From NCBI GenBank assembly GCA_964016885.1, contig OZ024741.1, positions 277,574,001 through 277,638,000 on the forward strand: DNA of 64,000 nucleotides, given 5' to 3'. A program made the translations under genes and the position numbers. Source of the DNA: Eledone cirrhosa (lineage: Eukaryota). Of the stretch, positions 1 to 61,790 are shown one piece after another (within the stretch, counting starts at the first letter, position 1; the number at the start of each line of letters is the position of its first letter). The notes under the pieces were generated by a model. It was given only the letters and a program-made list of their open reading frames with translations, searched no databases and was not told the DNA's origin.

Positions 1-180
1 AAGAAGAAAAGGAATAAAGACGATGTACAAGACAAGTTTACACACACATACCTCCCCTCCCCCCCCCACACACACACACATACGCACATACACACGTATA
101 AGTGTGTGTGTGGGGAGGGGGGGTTCAAAAGAGTGCACAGCACAGAGACAATGAAAAGAACAACAAAAAGACGGACAGTC

Positions 181-250
181 ACATCTCCTCAGTCAACCTC
201 TAGAAATCACTACTGTTTCGGCGCATTAAGGTCGATGCCATTCATTCCAG
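181..250 (-). ncRNA. Rearranged hammerhead-like motif, degenerate copy
   Basis: Minus strand reads aatggc-A-tcgacctt-aatgcgcc-GAAAC-22 nt-CTGAGGA; tcgacctt pairs with gaggttga immediately 5' of the core; cleavage triplet appears mutated (GCA). Confidence 0.55.
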
Positions 251-305
251 TGTACATTGGGACATAACAAATTTGGTAAAGACAAGTTATGCCTTTAAAC
301 GAATT

Positions 306-33759: not shown

Positions 33760-34194
33760 TGTTATACTTTGGGAGGGTCATGTTGCCAATAAGAAACACA
33801 CGCACCAGTTGATTTCACTTCAATTTATTATAATAAATTTATAAATTTAGGAATTTATAAATTTCCGGTTGGTTGGTTGGTTCCACAACCAGATGATTGT
33901 TTATATATTGTCAATGTTCTTTCGTCACACATTCTGTGACCTCATCAGTGACTGGGGATTCTTTTCTTTGTTTTTGTGCCTCTCTCTGTTTTTGTGCCCC
34001 AGTCACTGAAGAGGTCACAGAATGTGTGACGAAAAAACTTTGACAATATATAAACAATCATCTGGTTGTGGAACCAACAAACCAACCGGAAATTTATAAA
34101 TTCCTAAATTTATAAATTTATTATAATAAATTGAAGTGAAAGCAACTGGTGCGTGTGTTTCTTATTGGCAACATGACCCTCCCAAAGTATAACA
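33760..34194. repeat. Inverted repeat (198-bp arms, 39-bp spacer) with hammerhead-like motifs
   Basis: Arms 33760-33957 and 33997-34194; gtca-CTGAAGA-g gtcaca gaatg tgtgac-GAAA-aaactt-tgac at 34002-34044 and a CTGATGA mirror at 33910-33952; stem III poor. Confidence 0.85.
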
Positions 34195-36029: not shown

Positions 36030-36110
36030 TAAAAGTGATAAAGGCGCTGTGTGGTTACTAATAAATATTATTTTGGAAAACGTAAGAGAAACACAAACAT
36101 AAGGACAATT

Positions 36111-36190
36111 CCCGCTGTTCGGCTGTCTGCTGTAGGTCGCTGGTGTTTCAACGCATTAAAGACAATACATCTCACCACAGTGCGTTGATA
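36111..36190 (-). ncRNA. Rearranged hammerhead-like motif, core mutated
   Basis: gatGT-A-ttgtct..tgcgtt-GAAAC-22 nt (ending agacag)-CCGAACA. Confidence 0.5.
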
Positions 36191-37880: not shown

Positions 37881-39010
37881 GGCAGTAGAGGTAGAGGATC
37901 GGACGCCATGCTTTGCAGCATAGAGTTACGGCCCTCTATGATCTGAGTTCAAATCCCGCCGAGGTTAACTTTGCCTTTCATCCTTACGGGGTCGATAAAA
38001 TAAAGTACCAGTCACGCATTGGCGTCAATTTAATCGACTTTCCCCTTCTCCCAAATTACTGGCCTTGTGCCTATATAAGAAACCAATCGGGCAATGTGAT
38101 CGGTGGAAACTTCACCTCGGCGTTCTATAGAGGATTAGTGGAGGGGAAGAGCGACGACGTACTTGGGGAAACTCTAGGCGTCGACGAAAATCAACTAGCC
38201 AATCTCTTCGGAAGAACTTTCGGGCCGGGGCCTATGGACAACTTCCAGAAATCTCTGGCCTGGCAGTGCTACCGAGGAGCCTTGCCAGTTCGGGATAAAC
38301 TCTACAGGCATGGAGGTGCCGTCAGCCGGGCATGTCCGAGATGCGCGCAGGGCGACGAAACCGTCCTGCACGCACTCGTCCAGTGTCCGAAAATTGCTGA
38401 CTTGTGGGTTTATGTCGAACACCTGCTGTCGCGTTTAGGACGGATCCGGCTATCATCTGAGTCCATCGTGAGGATTGCCCCGCCCTCCTCCTTTAGCCGG
38501 GAAGGGCAGGCAGTTTTTATCTGTCTGGTGGCCATGGCGAAAGAGATAGTATGGTGGACACGTTTGAAAGGGCTGAAGACGAGCACTTACCTCTTCGGTG
38601 ATGCTCTGATTGACTTTTTCAAATTTCATTTGAAAAGGAAAATCAGAGTAGAGAGGGAAGTGCTCTCTTCCCAGCATTTTGTTGAAAGATGGGTGAGAGA
38701 AGCAAGAATGGCCCGAGTGAATGGGCCTACTCTGAGTATATATCTGTAAATTAAAGGTGGAAAACTGGGAGAGGGCACTTGCCTTGGTGGTCAGGGTCAT
38801 TGTGGCTTTTTACTGGGCTTTCTCCACAAATGTCCCTCCGAAGTCTCCCCCCTATTGGGGAATTTTTCATTGTTATTTTCATTGTTATTTTTTGTTACAT
38901 CCTCTGTTTTTGTTTTTTTACACGCAGAAATGCCCATTTGTACCGTCCTGCATTGTCCTGCACTGTCCTTAATGTCTACTTTATGTAAACCCTTGTGGTT
39001 AATAAAGAAA

Positions 39011-39063: not shown

Positions 39064-40191
39064 GGCAGTAGAGGTAGAGGATCGGACGCCATGCTTTGCA
39101 GCATAGAGTTACGGCCCTCTATGATCTGAGTTCAAATCCCGCCGAGGTTAACTTTGCCTTTCATCCTTACGGGGTCGATAAAATAAAGTACCAGTCACGC
39201 ATTGACGTCAATTTAATCGACTTTCCCCTTCTCCCAAATTACTGGCCTTGTGCCTATATAAGAAACCAATCGGGCAATGTGATCGGTGGAAACTCCACCT
39301 CGGCGTTCTATAGAGGATTAGTGGAGGGGAAGAGCGACGACGTACTTGGGGAAACTCTAGGCGTCGACGAAAATCAACTAGCCAATCTCTTCGGAAGAAC
39401 TTTCGGGCCGGGGCCTATGGACAACTTCCAGAAATCTCTGGCCTGGCAGTGCTACCGAGGAGCCTTGCCAGTTCGGGATAAACTCTACAGGCATGGAGGT
39501 GCCGTCAGCCGGGCATGTCCGAGATGCGCGCAGGGCGACGAAACCGTACTGCACGCACTCGTCCAGTGTCCGAAAATTGCTGACTTGTGGGTTTATGTCG
39601 AACAACTGCTGTCGCGTGTAGGACGGATCCGGCTATCATCTGAGTCCATCGTGAGGATTGCCCCGCCCTCCTCCTTTAGCCGGGAAGGGCAGGCAGTTTT
39701 TATCTGTCTGGTGGCCATGGCGAAAGAGATAGTATGGTGGACACGTTTGAAAGGGCTGAAGACGAGCACTTACCTCTTCGGTGATGCTCTGATTGACTTT
39801 TTCAAATTTCATTTGAAAAGGAAAATCAGAGTAGAGAGGGAAGTGCTCTCTTCCCAGTATTTTGTTGAAAGATGGGTGAGAGAAGCAAGAATGGCCCGAG
39901 TGAATGGGCCTACTCTGAGTATATATCTGTAAATTAAAGGTGGAAAACTGGGAGAGGGCACTTGCCTTGGTGGTCAGGGTCACTGTGGCCTTTTACTGGG
40001 CTTTCTCCACAAATGTCCCTCCGAAGTCTCCCCCTATTGGGGAATTTTTCATTGTTATTTTTTTGTTACATCCTCTGTTTTTGTTTTTTACACGCAGAAA
40101 TGCCCATTTGTACCGTCCTGTATTGTCCTGCACTGTCCTTAATGTCTACTTTATGTAAACCCTTGTGGTTAATAAAGAAATCATTATTATT

Positions 40192-43540: not shown

Positions 43541-43872
43541 ATATCACATAAGAAACGGAGAATCAGTGGTGCGATGAATAAAATTTATTAGACATATTAC
43601 AATCGTTTCTCTGGCGACCAGCTCGAGGCACGATCGATGTACTGATCGAACCTGATCTGAAATTGCATGGTCGTCAGATATGTCTCGATTCTACGAAGCA
43701 GAGTTTCCAAATGTTCGTAGAATCGAGACATATCTGACGACCTTGCGATTTCAGAGTCAGGTTCGATCAGTACATCGATCGTGCCTCGAACTGGTCGCCA
43801 GAGAAACGATTGTAATAAGTCTAATACATTTTAATTCGTTGCACCACTGATTCTCCGTTTCTTATGTGATAT
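43541..43872. repeat. Inverted repeat (~157-bp arms, 16-bp spacer), family B copy 1
   Basis: Arms 43541-43697 and 43714-43872; related to 54066-54333. Confidence 0.9.
43591..43684 (-). ncRNA. Type I hammerhead with ~60-nt stem II domain (mirror copy 43727-43821 on plus strand)
   Basis: gacatat-CTGACGA-~60 nt-GAAAC-gatt-GTA-atatgtc-taataaa; 7-bp stem I. Confidence 0.7.
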
Positions 43873-45976: not shown

Positions 45977-47640
45977 AGCAACTAACAGCGCTGCGATCGA
46001 ATGTGGCTTTTTAGCCCACCCAATGATCTAAAATGTCTTGCACAGAGTTGGCAACCAAAACATTCAATGGGAATAGACGGCTGTGGTTGGAGTTCATGTA
46101 CTTTTGCATGTCACTTGAGCCCTCCTGCTGATTTACATTCTCTACCACATGCTTGGCAAGCATGATGAGTAGCATCTCCAACAGCAGCCTGGTAGTCAAC
46201 CACTGGTCTTACTTCATGACTGCGAAGATGACTTTCGAGTCCAGCTTTGCTTAGGCAGAGTCTCGCACAGACGCTGCATGTCAGCACCATAGGAGGACCC
46301 TCGCCGTCTGGAAGTGCAACAGCAATGCCCTTCCTCACATCCCGCTTTACTTTCTCGTATGCGATTCGAGATGCCTCAAAGGCAACTTTTCTCCATTTAT
46401 ACGATCAGCAGCAATATTTTCCCACGTATCAGCAGAGATGTTAGCGTCTTTCAAAGAGGCTTTCAAGGAATCCTTATACCTCTTTTTTGGTTTATGTGGC
46501 GGTCGTTTTCCTTTAACCAACTCTCCATAAAAGAGTTGTTTTGGTATTCTAGAATCCTTCATCCTGGCAAGGTGACCACTCCAACGGAGTCGTTGCTTAA
46601 GCACAAGAGCTTCTATACTGTCACACATAGAGCTTTCCAAAATCTCGACATCACTGATGTGGTCCCTCCAGTGAACGCCATGGATCCGTCTGAGACACAT
46701 CTGATGGAAACGCTTCAATTGCTTAAGGTGGTGTCGATATGTGACCCAGGTCTCGCAGGCATAAAGAAGACAAGAGAGCACACATGCCTTCTACACCTTT
46801 ACCTTTGTCTTCTTGCATATGTCTCGCCGACCCCAGAGTCGCCTTTCTAGCTTTCCGAAAGCATCACTTGCTTTCCTAATCCTGAGTGGGATTTCATTAT
46901 CAAAGTTGCTGTATCGATTGAAAGTGCTTCCCAGGTAGACAAACTGATCAACCACTCAAGTCGTTTACCATACACATAGATGTGTGGTTCAGTGTACTGC
47001 TTACCAGGGGCAGGTTGGTACATGATGACGGTTTTCTTGAGACTGACAGTCAATCCTAGGGCAGTGCAAGCGTCAGAAAATGCATTCAAATGTGCTGCAT
47101 ATTACTCTCTGTGTGCGCTACAAGATCGCAATCATCTGCATACACGAGGTCTCTTATGATTGATGTAAATTCTTTTGTCTTTGCAGCAAAGCGCCTGATG
47201 TTAAATATGCTGCCTGAGGTTCGATATCGGATGTAAACACCATGCTCGCAATTCCTGAATGCAATACAGAAAACCATTGCAAAGTATATGGCAAACAGGG
47301 TCGGTGCTGGAATATCCCCCTGTTTCACTCCATTTTTTACTGAGATAGGCTCCGACATTAACCCAAGCCTTCATGTCGTCATGGAAAGACCTAACTAAAG
47401 CAAGGAACTTATCAGGGCAACCAAGTTTCTGGAGAACCTTCCATAATGCATTTCTGTTAACAGTATCGAAAGCTTTTGTCAGATCGACAAAAACCTGATA
47501 CAGATCCAAACCTTGTTCCATGCACTTCTCCTGGAGCTGTCTAGCTGAGAAGATCATATCAGTAGTGCCGCGTCCAGCACGAAAACCAGATTGACTTTCA
47601 GGAAGAACACAATCTGCAATGTGTGTCAGCAGACGGTCCA
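45977..47640 (-). mobile_element. RTE-clade LINE, 5'-truncated and frameshifted
   Basis: PESQSGFRAGRGT, FVDLTKAFD, GVKQG, LVYADDC, LLYACETW, tandem C-terminal C2H2 fingers. Confidence 0.92.
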
Positions 47641-47760
47641 TATATATATATATACACGGTGTATATATATATATATACACACACATACATACATACATAC
47701 ATACATACATACATACATACATACATACATACATACATACATACATACATACATACATAC

Positions 47761-49960
47761 AGACAGAATTTCACTTTCTATCGGCAAGATCTCATACGGC
47801 TGTTTACAGAAACCATTAAAGGCACACAAGAACTGCCCAGATGGTTATCAACTGCCACTACTCTCCTCATTCCCAAAAATAGCCAAACCACCCTTGCTAA
47901 AAATACCGCCCAATAGCCTGCCAAAACATCATGTATAAATTATATACTGGGTGCCTTAACCTGTTCTTACAGGATCACTGTGCTACCAACAACATCATAA
48001 CACCTGAGCAAGCTGGTGGAAAGAGGGAGGTGTGGGGTTGCATAGATCACCTACTAACTAATAAAATGATTCAAGAAAAAACAACAAAGAATCGCAGAAA
48101 CATGACTGTGGTGTGGCTGGACTATCAAAAAGCATTTGATAGTGTACCTTATGGGTGGATTGTTAAGGCTTTACAGTTAGCCAAAGTCCCACAACCACTG
48201 ATAGCTGCTGTTGAACGTCTGACCAAGAACTGGTACACCAATTTGATCCTTAGAGGTGAGAAGGAGAAAGTTAAGACTGATAAGATACATTACCAGAATG
48301 GCATCTTTCAGGGTGATAGCTTGTCAGTACTACTCTTCGTTGAAACAAGGTGGACAAAGAAGTGGGTCCAGAAGTATCTCCCATCTTTTCTTTGTTGATG
48401 ACCTGAAGTTGTATGGGCCAAATAGCAATGACATCAAGAAACAATTGGACCTCATTACACAATTTTCAACAGACATCAAAATGGAATTTGGTGAGTCCAA
48501 GTGTGCACATATTGGAAGTAAAACGTGGAAGAGCTGTGCCCTCCTCTAGAAATCTAGAGATGAACGGCCTGACAATACAACCTCTACAGTCAGGTGACAA
48601 CTACAGATATCTTGGACAGGATGAGAATGCCAGATATGATGGACCCATAAATAAGGAGAGAACCAGAACTGAATACCTCAGAAGAGTAAAGAAAATATGG
48701 TCATCAGAACTGTCAGCGTACAACAAATACATTGCCCACAATACTTATGCTGTGCCAATTCTAACGCCAACATTTGGCCTGCTGAACTGGCCATTGCAAG
48801 AAGTAAGTGAGATGGATGTTAGAACTCGCAAACTTCTCACTGGGAACTTTAACATCAATGGTGATGTGGATAGGCTATACTTCTCATGCAAGGAAGGTGG
48901 CCGGGGGTCTAAAATCCATATTAACATCATATAAGACCCGGATAGTAACACTGAAGCAACACCTTCAACAGAGGAAAAAGGTTGGCAACCATCTTGCCCA
49001 GGTTTATGAGTATGAAAAAATATATATCATTAGAATAGCGACTGATCTGGAGGAGAGATATGGAATAAAGCCTGATATAAATCTCTCACCCAGAGAAATC
49101 GGAAGATCCTATTCAATGTTCAAACAAGATGAAAAAATTGACCAATTTACAGAAAAAGTTGTGCATGGATACTTGAGACGTAAAACACAGACCATAGAGG
49201 GGATAAACCACTCAAAAAGCCTGGCATGGAGTTCCGACAAGTTTATGACATCACACCTTGAGGGATATCTCTATGCAATTCAGGAACAAGAACTCCCTAC
49301 CAAATATCTGCTGCACAAAAGAGGAGGGCCATCAGCTGACAATAAATGTAGGCTATGTAAAACAAAGATCGAAGATGTAAGCCACATTGTTGCCAGCTGC
49401 GAAAGAATGTCATATCGCTACTACCTCCCCATGAGACACGATGGGATAGCTAGAACCATCTGGAACGCACTTCGGAAAACAAAATTAACAACAAACGAGG
49501 AAGAATATATTGAGACAGATGGCACTAAGGAATACTGGTGGAACCTGAAAATAAAAACTGCCACCAAATTAAAGCACAACCGGCCTGATATTGTTGTTTG
49601 GGACCACACATTGAATAGGTGTTCTGTTGTGGAGATCAGCTGCCCACTTGATGTAAACGTTGTCAGAAAAATAGAGGAGAAGGAGGACATCTACGGACCA
49701 TTGATGAGGAGTTTACAAATCCAGTATCTAAGATACACCTTTAGCTTCATACCCATCATTATTGGAGCTACGGGTTATATACCAACCCGTTTGGATCAAA
49801 GTATGACTGAACTTGGATTTGCGGACAAAGAGCGCAGCTCCCTAATTCATAGTCTACAAATGGCTGCGATAGCTGGCACCTTCAAAATTTGCAAAACATT
49901 CTTGCGATTCAGGAAGGTGGCCGGTCAAAAAAATATACTCGAAATTAAGAGAAAGAGATA
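47761..49960 (+). mobile_element. R4/Dong-like non-LTR retrotransposon with restriction-like endonuclease, 5'-truncated
   Basis: WLDYQKAFDSV, GIFQGDSLS, FVDDLKLY, YRYLG, CRLC..HIVASC zinc knuckle, RHD, RPDIVVWD..VEISCP; several frameshifts. Confidence 0.88.
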
Positions 49961-50229: not shown

Positions 50230-50497
50230 GCACACACACACACACACACACAAGCACACACGCTTACAGACATATATAGATATACATACGTATTAACATA
50301 GTTGATGTCTAAATTCCAATAAAAGTGTCTTGTTACTATGTTAGAATCTTGTTACTATGTTAGAATCCGGCTCACTCCCTATTGGTGAACATTTATAAAA
50401 TACAAGTATATATAAATATATATATATAATTGTACGCAATTATACTATATATATATTCAATTGTACGCAGTTATATTAGGTTTATGCTTGGAGGAGG

Positions 50498-50533
50498 TTT
50501 CTACGTTTCGGACATAAGTCCTTCATCAGGAAA
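50498..50533 (-). ncRNA. Minimal type I hammerhead ribozyme
   Basis: tttc-CTGATGA-a ggac ttat gtcc-GAAAC-GTA-gaaa; palindromic ACGT stem III typical of Penelope HHRs. Confidence 0.85.
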
Positions 50534-50663
50534 GTGTGGTAAGGAGGAGAACACGAACTTCGAGAAGGAGTGAGGAGGGTTTTAATGAGAGAAGTTACAA
50601 AGTAATGATAAAAATAAAAATGAAAATAAACATAAAAATAAAAGGGGTTATCTCTCTCTCTAT

Positions 50664-54475: not shown

Positions 54476-54892
54476 AATATTATTAAAAATATTAATAAAT
54501 GGATATATTCACATAATCAAAATATATGCTTTATTATATATATTTCGGAGGTACTGTGCTGTTTTTTCAGTACGTCCTCATCAGATAAAATACATAAATT
54601 GATGTATGACATACCTCAACTATGCTGATCGTTCAATTCCAGTCTTGGCAGTGATTTATTACAACAAAACTCAATATTTATATACCACAAGTAAAAGTGT
54701 GACAAACTAAATATGATGGAGAGGGGTAAGTAGCGAGATAAAAGTATTAGGAGTGGGTGAGTAGGAGAAAGTATAGAATAAATAAATAAATAAACAACTT
54801 TTCCTTATGCAGTTATATATTCTATCATCTCTATCCCCTTCTCTCTTCTTTTTATCTTCATCTTCGTATTTTTTCCCTTTTCTCTTCTATTT

Positions 54893-57546: not shown

Positions 57547-57852
57547 CACCGTATTTTTGACTAAAGGAATTTTAGCCTGATATTGGGGTTTAGAACCCTC
57601 AGATAAATGGAAAAAGATGAGTATTGACGTACATGGGAGTCGAACCGACATCTTTGGTTATCGCGACCACTGTGCTACCATTACACCAACACATCACCCT
57701 GGTGTGTTGGTGTAATGGTAGCACAGTGGTCGCGATAACCAAAGATGTCGGTTCGACTCCCATGTACGTCAATACTCATCTTTTTCCATTTATCTGAGGG
57801 TTCTAAACCCCAATATCAGGCTAAAATTCCTTTAGTCAAAAATACGGCGAAA
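57544..57852. repeat. Near-perfect palindrome (150-bp arms, 9-bp spacer) with back-to-back tRNA-like heads
   Basis: Centre 57698; A-box tggtgtaatgg and B-box ggttcgactcc within 57702-57771 (+), mirrored on the minus strand. Confidence 0.85.
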
Positions 57853-58118: not shown

Positions 58119-58201
58119 ACACACGTACAAATCCAAAGAGATCTGTTTCGCCAATAAGTTGTTGACAGAAATGAAATAGCCCATGGTTCATCAGCGTGTG
58201 T
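58119..58201 (-). ncRNA. Type I hammerhead ribozyme with long stem III
   Basis: acacacg-CTGATGA-a cca..tgg c-GAA-acagatct cttt ggatttGT-A-cgtgtgt; 7-bp stem I, 8-bp stem III. Confidence 0.8.
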
Positions 58202-58529
58202 AAGGCTATACATTTCAGACAACTCTAACAGAATTTAAAGCGACCGTCCAGCTACACGTGGGAGAGAGAAATCACAGCGTGTTTAGGGCAGTGAACCAGT
58301 GGCTTCTGAGGGCCGAAAACCACTCAGAGAAGTGTGCTCAACCAAACAGAGAGAGAGGAAAGACTGTTATAAGGAGCGAAATATCACGATAAATTAACGG
58401 AGCCAAAGACTCTTGCTATTCCCTGTCAATAATGTGCTCAAAGGAGAAGGAATCCTGAGCTCTTTAAAATACAATATGTTGAAAAGGTAACACACTAGAG
58501 AGAGATAGCATATTATCACGTTAACTTAT

Positions 58530-59614: not shown

Positions 59615-59741
59615 AGTTTTAATATAGATGAGATTCTACAGGACTAGAATTGTTTCATTCTTTAGAAATCATCAGGATTCCTGATGATTTCTAAAGAATG
59701 AAACAGTTCTAGTCCTGTAGAATCTCATCTATATTAAAACT
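59615..59741. repeat. 127-bp palindrome of two back-to-back hammerheads
   Basis: Centre 59678 (atcagga t tcctgat); plus-strand HHR 59676-59724 gattc-CTGATGA..GAA-acag..ctGT-A-gaatc. Confidence 0.88.
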
Positions 59742-60613: not shown

Positions 60614-60934
60614 TTGATGTGTGTGTGTGCATGTGTGAGTGTGTGTATGTGTAAGCGATTACAAATGACTATCTACAACCCTACCCCCCCCCCTACACCC
60701 ACCGACCCCCTACACACTCACCTATCAATCAACATACAGTATCAATATGTTCAAATATGTAAAATCTTTAAGTAAATTGATCGAATAAAATTGAGATTTA
60801 TATCAAAGTTGGACTGTCAGAATATTTTATTTTTGACACGCTTGATTGATGACGAACTGTTGCTGCTTCATTTCTAATGTTTGCCTGTCTGTGCGTCTGT
60901 TTGCTTGTCTGTATGTCTGTATGTCTTTGTCTGC

Positions 60935-60989
<55 letters not shown>

Positions 60990-61012
60990 ACTCTCTCTCT
61001 CTGTCTCTCTAT

Positions 61013-61053
<41 letters not shown>

Positions 61054-61204
61054 TTAACTTGATCTATCTTCTCTTCGGTTACTCACATGTGCCATTGTCC
61101 TGTGTTCCCCCTTCTATCGGTATGTTTACTTCATTTTTTTCCTTCTTTTCTTCTCCCCTTTTTTCTTTCTTTCCCTCATCGCTTTTTGATAGTTAAAAGG
61201 CCAT

Positions 61205-61292
61205 GGGCGCGCTATGGATAGATGTTCTGTTTATAATGCGCCGAAACATCCATGATCCGTAGTAAACAGCTGACGAAGGGAAACTTTCCTTC
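61205..61292 (+). ncRNA. Rearranged (non-circularly permuted) hammerhead-like motif, best-preserved copy
   Basis: gatGT-T-ctgtttat-aatgcgcc-GAA-acatc-catgatccgta-gtaaacag-CTGACGA-aggg; stem III 5 bp, stem I 8 bp. Confidence 0.7.
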
Positions 61293-61790
61293 TCTTGTTT
61301 GTGTCGCCTTACCTTCTAACACTCGTTATCAGTACCCACACAAGCCTCGCCTTCCTCAATCCTTATTTTTGTATATATATATATATATATATACTCATTA
61401 ATGTATGTAATTTCAGTGAGGGAAATGAAGGTACAATTCATCGCAATGGTGCCCCTACGTCTCTACCGGGAGTTGCGGGACCGTACCATCCTAGTACATT
61501 TGATAAACTCCGTCGTCATCTCTGAAACGAGTGGGGTATAAACCAAAATTGAAGTCTAAAATGTCGTTGTTCTCACTACCATTTTGTCTGGATTTCAGTC
61601 CTGAACTCCGTATCGCACACACATAAATCATCTAGATGTGTTCCACTATGGTTGCCTTCATGCCTTCATATAAATTGGGCTTACACACTTGAGTATCTCA
61701 TATATAGTCAGCTTCAGTGTGGTAAAAGGAGTATATGAACCGAACTAATGACCACGTAGCCATGCGCTTTCATGTGTGTGTGTGTGTGTG

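Follow-up and report, generated by a model that had tools for sequence, protein, structure and literature searches.

A hammerhead ribozyme candidate with S-G-C strand order near the 3' end of a non-coding Penelope-type repeat in the Eledone cirrhosa genome

The genome of Eledone cirrhosa (NCBI GenBank assembly GCA_964016885.1) contains a repeat family that carries a hammerhead motif in S-G-C order, in which the cleavage strand (S) is followed by the GAAA strand (G) and then by the CUGANGA strand (C). The family was analyzed starting from a 64,000-nt stretch of contig OZ024741.1 (positions 277,574,001 to 277,638,000), hereafter the window, which lies in a 3.0-Gb genome rich in microsatellites. 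Sequence comparison makes it likely that the motif, located near the 3' end of a non-coding repeat of the Penelope-like element (PLE) type, self-cleaves multimeric transcripts after UH, probably as a dimer of two copies.

In the copy at 61205 (plus strand), GAUGU-U (61221-61226) is followed by CUGUUUA (61227-61233), GAAAC (61243) and CUGACGA (61270), which bears out the strand order that an earlier note had read from this sequence. The pattern GAAAY-N22-CTGANGA occurs four times in the 64-kb window versus 0.03 expected, and none of 100 shuffles reaches four. Seven sites had been named as copies with this exact spacing, and all of them belong to the family, being the seven best window matches (E from 1e-19 to 0.02) of a covariance model built from 63 copies, with two of the seven in the training set. 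The 22-nt spacing is kept at all seven, but the exact pattern is present at only four, and only the 61205 and 30823 copies retain three blocks with an intact core. The core is damaged in three copies (17166, AAAAC/CTGAGTA; 30297, CTGGTGA; 36111, CCGAACA), and the 17166 and 19843 copies are 5'-truncated and lack the substrate strand. Because five of the seven are truncated or core-damaged, the window copies by themselves are weak evidence. An Rfam search of the window returned no hammerhead family among the 150 of 375 matches listed, which were mostly microsatellite noise. The features of the 61205 copy, its host repeat and the other copies are as follows (window coordinates).

61170..61176, plus strand: 5' strand of helix Q, pairing with 61277-61283 (MFE fold and covariation over 56 copies)
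61177..61205, plus strand: hairpin R, between Q and P (covariation and fold)
61206..61211, plus strand: 5' strand of helix P, the upstream partner of the strand preceding GAAA, predicted to take the place of stem II (covariation)
61212..61217, plus strand: 5' strand of helix X, the equivalent of the type SGC bridging helix (covariation)
61218..61220, plus strand: non-bulged strand of the kink-turn-type loop, A/U/A at 3n/2n/1n (cluster consensus)
61221..61226, plus strand: 5' strand of stem III and triplet GUU, with the predicted cut 3' of 61226 (covariation, fold and core survey)
61227..61233, plus strand: 5' strand of stem I (covariation)
61234..61236, plus strand: UAA linker from stem I to helix P (core survey)
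61237..61242, plus strand: 3' strand of helix P, its last base being position 11.1 (covariation)
61243..61250, plus strand: core GAAA and 3' strand of stem III (sequence, covariation and core survey)
61251..61256, plus strand: bulged strand of the kink-turn-type loop (L1-L3, G1b, A2b, 3b; cluster consensus)
61257..61262, plus strand: 3' strand of helix X (covariation)
61263..61269, plus strand: 3' strand of stem I (covariation)
61270..61276, plus strand: core CUGACGA (sequence and core survey)
61277..61283, plus strand: position 10.1 and 3' strand of helix Q (covariation and MFE fold)
60905..61372, plus strand: host-repeat copy, 5'-truncated and non-coding, with microsatellites inside and after it (72% identity to the tandem unit over 60905-61323)
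30773..30901, plus strand: second copy with an intact core, triplet GUC, predicted cut 3' of 30843, kink-turn loop replaced as in its subfamily (covariance model)
30290..30377, minus strand: inverted partner of the 30823 copy, core damaged to CTGGTGA (covariance model)
36106..36189, minus strand: copy with a GUA triplet and the damaged core CCGAACA (covariance model)
176..259, minus strand: copy with the triplet mutated to GCA; its subfamily lacks hairpin R between Q and P (covariance model)
19805..19886, plus strand: 5'-truncated copy that keeps only the G and C blocks and is joined to an inverted part of its own sequence (covariance model)
17142..17218, plus strand: 5'-truncated copy with a damaged core (covariance model)

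The motif does not begin at 61205, as had been annotated, and starts about 35 nt further upstream, at 61170. The pairing claimed for stems I and III of this copy holds, both stems covary across 14 sequence clusters, and the predicted cut sites at 61226 and 30843 sit in register. Stems I and III therefore stand as parts of the structure first proposed, but the structure suggested by the family is larger and includes helices P, Q and R and a kink-turn-type loop. A second segment had been described as extending stem III; it does pair, but as a separate helix (X) beyond a 3x6 loop, where it would be the counterpart of the helix bridging stems I and II in type SGC hammerheads. The reported triplets GUU, GUC and GUA need correction in that the copy at 181-250 carries GCA instead of GUA, and the commonest triplets of the family are GUA and AUA, not GUU or GUC.

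Covariation was assessed in a MAFFT alignment of 63 copies that was not structure-fitted and that was capped at eight copies per cluster, with the window copy added and truncated copies retained. A 24-pair model comprising I, III, X, P and 10.1-11.1 is paired in 88% of cells, versus 33-50% for slid controls, and 19 of the 24 pairs show two-sided change in a total of 336 cells, a count that overstates independence because related copies are scored as separate cells. All seven pairs of stem I change on both sides, as do four of five in stem III and five of six in helix X (90.5% paired). Helix P is 89% paired, with two-sided change in 32 of 62 at pair 12/51, and three of its five pairs vary on one side only. 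The 10.1-11.1 pair forms in 45 of 62 copies (18 two-sided) and fails in 17. In an unguided mutual-information scan of 3,916 column pairs, the ten best pairing-compatible pairs are all model pairs, and a helix P column pair ranks fifth.

Helices Q and R were seen first in young copies, where Q consists of the bases just after CUGANGA-N and an upstream GUCC-type segment. Their covariation was scored in 56 of 134 copies, after removal of near-duplicates, capping of clusters and exclusion of three copies with microsatellite flanks and of four clusters. Together Q and R are 82% paired, versus 28-53% for slid controls, and 11 of 13 pairs change on both sides. Helix Q is 78% paired with two-sided change in three of five pairs, and all eight pairs of the 8-bp hairpin R change on both sides (82-85% paired). 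One subfamily lacks hairpin R at this place, and in the 61205 subfamily the base after A9 lengthens Q. Six helices (I, III, X, P, Q and R) thus covary in these alignments, together with the 10.1-11.1 pair in most subfamilies.

A canonical stem II, which the earlier note leaves aside, would join the strand that follows CUGANGA to the one preceding GAAA. It is only 48% paired, and only its first pair (10.1-11.1) covaries; with or without a 1-nt bulge, this helix was ruled out by the pairing and covariation test. A local hairpin after CUGANGA was also rejected: it is found in some subfamilies only, and the same bases covary with the upstream strand of Q. Stem II thus appears to be a single pair that opens into a Q/R/P junction whose strands are supplied from upstream. 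Since 61170-61176 pairs with 61277-61283, the ends of the RNA would exit the motif through Q.

Q, R and P appear when the 61205 copy is folded on its own, and the most stable structure predicted for it is a competing hairpin that buries the cut site, with pair probabilities of 0 for X, III and I. Nested folding recovers X and III in only three to four of the eight copies tested, and single-copy folds are mostly no more stable than those of shuffled sequences.

The core was surveyed in 195 copies from 974 kb of genome DNA, collected by non-core positions only; because the reference copies of this survey were core-selected, the following counts may omit lineages whose core decayed long ago. Position N7 takes all four bases, H17 is G in only four of the 195 copies, and the remaining core positions are 86-100% fixed, with CUGANGA, GAAA and UH all intact in 136 copies. 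The main triplets are GUA (75), AUA (46), GUU (32), AUC (14) and GUC (11), and CCGAAGA is frequent in one subfamily. The two A of the UAA linker, which were among the positions used to select copies, are kept in 192 and 194 of the 195; the adenines of this linker (61234-61236) are nearly invariant and may mark a tertiary contact. A twister ribozyme was considered and rejected by eye, as only a UAAUGC-like stretch resembles the twister cleavage stretch and no GAG follows the P strand.

Between stem III and helix X lies a 3x6 loop in which N-R-Y-G-A-Y stands opposite Y/A-G/U-A. The prevailing letter is A at both 1n and 2b in 14 of 14 clusters and G at 1b in 13 of 14, and position 2n holds G or U. 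The sequence RUGAUG/CUGA, as in box C/D kink-turns, appears in some subfamilies. The full kink-turn set is present in 78 of 113 copies (43 with G2n and 35 with U2n), a count that leaves aside a 21-copy subfamily including 30823, in which the kink-turn consensus has been lost and replaced by plain pairs with a bulge or by a different loop; this subfamily has nevertheless spread. These positions were absent from the patterns used to collect the 113 copies, and they are conserved to the same degree as the core. Most young copies carry U/G/A at 3n/2n/1n, whereas the 61205 copy has A/U/A; young copies with an intact 5' side have G at 2n, in a set chosen with GA in the pattern. The III-X loop matches, at the level of sequence, the kink-turn definition given in the accessible text of Huang and Lilley 2016 (PMC5061560), namely a 3-nt bulge followed by G1b.A1n and A2b.G2n, with U as the commonest substitute at 2n. 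It also shares C-G at -1b/-1n and U at 2n with kink-turns described there. Unlike established kink-turns, the loop is predicted from aligned copies, and one subfamily has lost it. The literature searched yielded no natural hammerhead that contains a kink-turn.

A genome-wide collection by descriptor, of the kind that the earlier note had proposed, yields 25,253 matches to GAAAY-N6-GA-N14-CTGANGA, versus 90 for the control, and the subfamily pattern GCGCCGAAAC-N22-CTGANGA gives 407 versus 0 for a reversed control. Sampling of 136 copies produced 16 clusters; fixed-register counts use 113 copies in 14 clusters, two shorter-spacing clusters (23 copies) being left out. Identity between the 14 cluster representatives is 38-80% (median 56%). 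Young subfamilies are also present, including a five-copy tandem array with 98% identity among its four full units. Of 83 genome copies, 58 form at least 19 of 22 pairs, and the 61205 copy forms all 22. A narrow pattern gave at least 118 matches in metagenome contigs and 40 in viral contigs, none with the stems, and relatives that it misses may exist elsewhere; as negative controls, the 114 metagenome matches scored form at most 16 of 22 pairs and the 33 viral matches scored at most 15. The family is also present in three sequencing runs whose type is not recorded, with common variants only outside the core; all three come from one sample, which may be that of the assembly, and they are not counted as independent support.

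The host units are about 400-760 nt long, pyrimidine-rich and without a conserved ORF, and each carries one ribozyme motif about 60-130 nt from its 3' end. Within each subfamily this 3' end is fixed, with microsatellites following it; on the 5' side, copies are truncated at varying points or run on into the preceding unit. By hand count, the first 100 matches listed include 14 tandem steps of 445-706 nt and eight inverted neighbours within 1 kb, all eight in -/+ orientation, the majority of these matches being single copies. Partial tandems, an inverted 5'-truncated copy and microsatellite targets form the Penelope-like insertion pattern described in the available part of bioRxiv 10.1101/2021.04.23.441226, and the host shows partial tandems, inverted 5'-truncated neighbours, a fixed 3' end and microsatellite targets. 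The Penelope-like context suggested earlier is accordingly upheld for the insertion pattern, but the host is a non-coding tandem repeat for which no RT-encoding parent was found.

A search of 136 copies, 30 long copies and 20 regions of 7-10 kb detected no RT/GIY-YIG frame continuous with the repeat; a rare autonomous copy may exist. The motif was also considered as a candidate for the hammerhead that Naiad elements lack, and no Naiad ORF was identified beside any copy. A 954-aa RT/GIY-YIG ORF beside one copy was rejected as the parent, since it belongs to a separate young family with its own CUGAAGA-stem-GAAA motif, and other nearby PLE ORFs are unlinked, those inspected carrying their own canonical-order motifs. 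The host is likely a non-autonomous Penelope-like element of retrozyme type.

Several observations concern these neighbouring elements. The very young Penelope-like family with the open 954-aa RT/GIY-YIG frame (L121:2356-5217, minus strand) has 37,033 candidates, 150 scored copies being 96-100% identical, and its 3' end carries CUGAAGA-stem-GAAA with no obvious cleavage strand; an inverted pair of ends of this family lies in the window at 33890-34060. Broken Penelope-like RT and GIY-YIG frames at 24751-26790 (minus strand) are followed by a canonical-order hammerhead-like motif at 24610-24710 (minus strand). In addition, a short GUAACCAC-like word is found in the tails of several permuted subfamilies (L029, L105 and L243 flanks). 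It recurs in the 3' part of a PLE family and in a further abundant repeat, and may represent a shared RT recognition signal.

The S-G-C order lies outside hammerhead types I-III (C-G-S, G-S-C or S-C-G), as had been stated, but it is not new in itself, because it has already been named and experimentally validated as type SGC. The accessible text of Eckert et al. 2023 (PMC10085705) defines the blocks S, G and C and validates type SGC by cleavage at the predicted site and by compensatory mutants. It describes 583 SGC sequences, from metatranscriptomes only, and, as far as that text goes, no permuted RNA was found in the genome of a known organism except one GCS candidate. In type SGC, the stem II strand and one strand of the bridging helix come after CUGANGA, a short linker of about 3 nt leads from stem I to the strand preceding GAAA, and 0-44 nt separate stem III from the bridge, an arrangement that the authors call sterically puzzling. 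The family described here shares with type SGC the strand order, the full core, the 3-nt stem I linker (here UAA) and a helix that connects stems I and II at their far ends. It differs in residing in an animal genome in over 25,000 copies, in having the stem II strand and the bridging strand upstream of the S block, in a stem II that appears reduced to one pair leading into the Q/R/P junction with the ends exiting through Q, and in a bridge tied to stem III on both strands via the kink-turn-type loop. Because two strands come from upstream, the assumption in that paper that the blocks are indivisible is broken here. With respect to hammerheads in general, the core and covarying stems I and III at the cut site are present, and a local stem II is replaced by P and Q.

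Comparison with hammerheads of retroelements reveals further likenesses. Like PLE hammerheads, the motif lies near element ends in tandem and inverted insertions, has an extra base after A9, a GGAC/GUCC helix after CUGANGA and high family diversity, and is proposed to act as a dimer. Unlike them (type I, C-G-S, with a minimal or palindromic stem III), it has a 5-bp stem III and a non-circular permutation, and no ORF was found. Animal non-LTR retrozymes, according to the available portions of PMC7229834 and bioRxiv 10.64898/2026.07.22.740005, likewise consist of non-coding tandem units with one hammerhead each, occur as monomers to multimers and have been proposed as non-autonomous PLE derivatives. 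They are type I by definition, whereas the order here is S-G-C in units of about 400-760 nt, and retrozyme searches as described in those sources would miss the motif because they use type I descriptors. The literature within reach, which includes work since 2023 and few subscription papers, contains no report of S-G-C order in an animal genome or with a kink-turn, and Eckert et al. announce a later SGC structure in the accessible text of PMC10085705. The host, the copy number and the expanded topology appear to be new.

The canonical arrangement CUGANGA-N-GGAC-loop-GUCC-GAAA is found in 6,775 copies genome-wide, versus 0 in the control. Helix Q matches the GGAC/GUCC helix of these copies in position and sequence, which makes it reasonable to suppose that the permuted motif arose by rearrangement of a canonical PLE hammerhead.

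In the proposed mechanism, each copy would first fold Q, R and a long hairpin comprising X, the kink and stem III. The hairpin loop would hold the cut site, the stem I strand, UAA, the P strand and GAAA, and the hairpin base would be flanked by the other P strand, still unpaired, and by the stem I strand that carries CUGANGA. Pairing of loop with base through stems I and P would then stack P in the usual place of stem II, so that a standard hammerhead core could form. Since X is connected to III through linkers of 3 and 6 nt and to P and I directly, a single copy should achieve such pairing less readily than two copies in tandem. If a dimer is needed, cleavage would take place in multimers and be suppressed in unit-length or circular RNA; multimeric transcripts would be cut into units, and a Penelope-type RT acting in trans would copy these units back.

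A crude geometric estimate assumed a 50-degree kink and 2.8 Å per base pair. With stems II and III coaxial and I parallel to II, as given in the accessible text of PMC4209133, helix X of a monomer would be 20-29 Å short along the axis and the helix axes would be separated by a gap of 26-37 Å. By reasoning and not computation, a parallelogram would result if two copies docked loop-to-base. Dimeric action of PLE and amphibian hammerheads is described in the parts available of PMC4209133, PMC7229834 and the review PMC6765202, and the earlier suggestion of a dimer-assembled or pseudoknotted RNA appears supported. Within the model, dimer action is mildly favored, monomer action is considered less probable, and use of both forms is a minor option. 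The 61205 copy itself is possibly an older, poor cutter; its activity is doubtful because of its GUU triplet, the U at 2n, an A.C mismatch at 10.1-11.1 and the more stable rival hairpin.

A less probable alternative is that the same ribozyme works as a monomer, the kink-turn bending X along stem III so that the loop docks on its own base, as in the SAM-I riboswitch. Kink-turns typically fold a short stem-loop back to a remote receptor (accessible text of PMC5061560), single-motif SGC constructs were cleaved during transcription, some with a 0-nt linker (accessible text of PMC10085705), helix lengths are constant across subfamilies, and single copies are the majority of the first 100 matches listed. 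The axial shortfall of the crude model argues for two copies instead, as does the shortness of both linkers here, compared with the one 0-44 nt linker described for known SGC; the part of PMC10085705 available includes no dimer tests. Somewhat more doubtful is a reading in which helix Q (GGAC/GUCC) and not P serves as the working stem II, with R and P inserted between C11.1 and G12 of a canonical-like junction. Q does have the position and sequence that stem II has in the 6,775 canonical copies, and the base after A9 lengthens it in the 61205 subfamily. However, P continues covalently into G12, the nucleotide that follows A9 and the one preceding G12 covary (18 two-sided changes), and a 3-nt linker ties P to stem I, like stem II in type SGC.

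It is unlikely that the fold is real but serves mainly as a binding or priming signal for a Penelope-type RT/endonuclease or a kink-turn protein, with cleavage that is slow, protein-dependent or vestigial. The position of the motif 60-130 nt from a fixed 3' end, the dominance of GUA, AUA and GUU among the triplets and the frequent CCGAAGA of one subfamily would suit such a role. So would two precedents in the accessible texts: one PLE hammerhead (PAc) needs the element's protein and is dispensable for insertion in vitro (PMC11167929), and box C/D-type kink-turns fold only with protein (PMC5061560). However, a free N7, an H17 that is not G and a fixed U16.1-A15.1, all at a median cluster identity of 56%, are constraints of the catalytic type. 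A chance motif amplified with the repeat and devoid of RNA function is highly improbable and already largely refuted. The common ancestry of all copies, the use of core patterns in the first collections and the ordinary stability of single-copy folds would agree with it, but compensatory changes occur in six helices across clusters 38-80% identical, the negative controls (slid helices, metagenome and viral matches) fail, and the kink-turn positions are conserved though not selected for. The preferred reading thus remains an S-G-C hammerhead that probably cleaves multimeric transcripts as a dimer.

A joint and more far-reaching version of this reading is put forward tentatively. The motif would be the first non-circularly permuted ribozyme in an animal genome, with a topology outside the six-permutation scheme, and it would work only as a pair of copies, whose kink-turned hairpins dock loop to base as a parallelogram with two active sites. 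Stem II would have become a four-way junction, and host L7Ae/15.5K would gate cleavage. If this were true, searches with type I-III descriptors would be blind to such motifs, and retroelements said to lack hammerheads, as well as many animal genomes, may hide them.

Non-circular RNA permutations are known, from the accessible text on type SGC, as 583 environmental sequences of unknown host whose origin was left open. Few ribozyme-like motifs in this animal genome are as common as the permuted arrangement, and censuses of retroelement ribozymes by type I-III descriptors are incomplete. With 6,775 canonical relatives that share the same GGAC/GUCC helix in the same genome, the path from canonical to permuted can be traced, and the natural subfamilies supply ready-made compensatory variants. 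In addition, the kink-turn and possible dimer offer a testable answer to the steric puzzle of type SGC, in which the far end of stem III is joined to the bridge between stems I and II.

Other features of the window include canonical-order hammerhead-like motifs (CUGAUGA-stem-GAAA) at 50470-50560, 17765-17850, 19060-19150 and 54520-54610 (all minus strand) and at 59650-59740 (both strands). A type I hammerhead-like motif with a GUA triplet and a CACACG/CGUGUG stem I is located at 58120-58230 (minus strand) and occurs in tandem in L018; its large stem II domain and a long upstream pairing, equivalent to a stem I/II bridging helix, mark it as a possible relative of the permuted family. A long near-perfect palindrome at 43640-43780 carries CUGACGA on both arms. 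An inverted tRNA-Ser(CGA)-like pair, perhaps SINE-derived, lies at 57624-57696 (minus strand) and 57700-57772 (plus strand), 3 nt apart, and LINE-like frames at 37895-38746 and 39078-39929 (plus strand) and at 47204-49958 are duplicated, broken and unrelated to the permuted motif.
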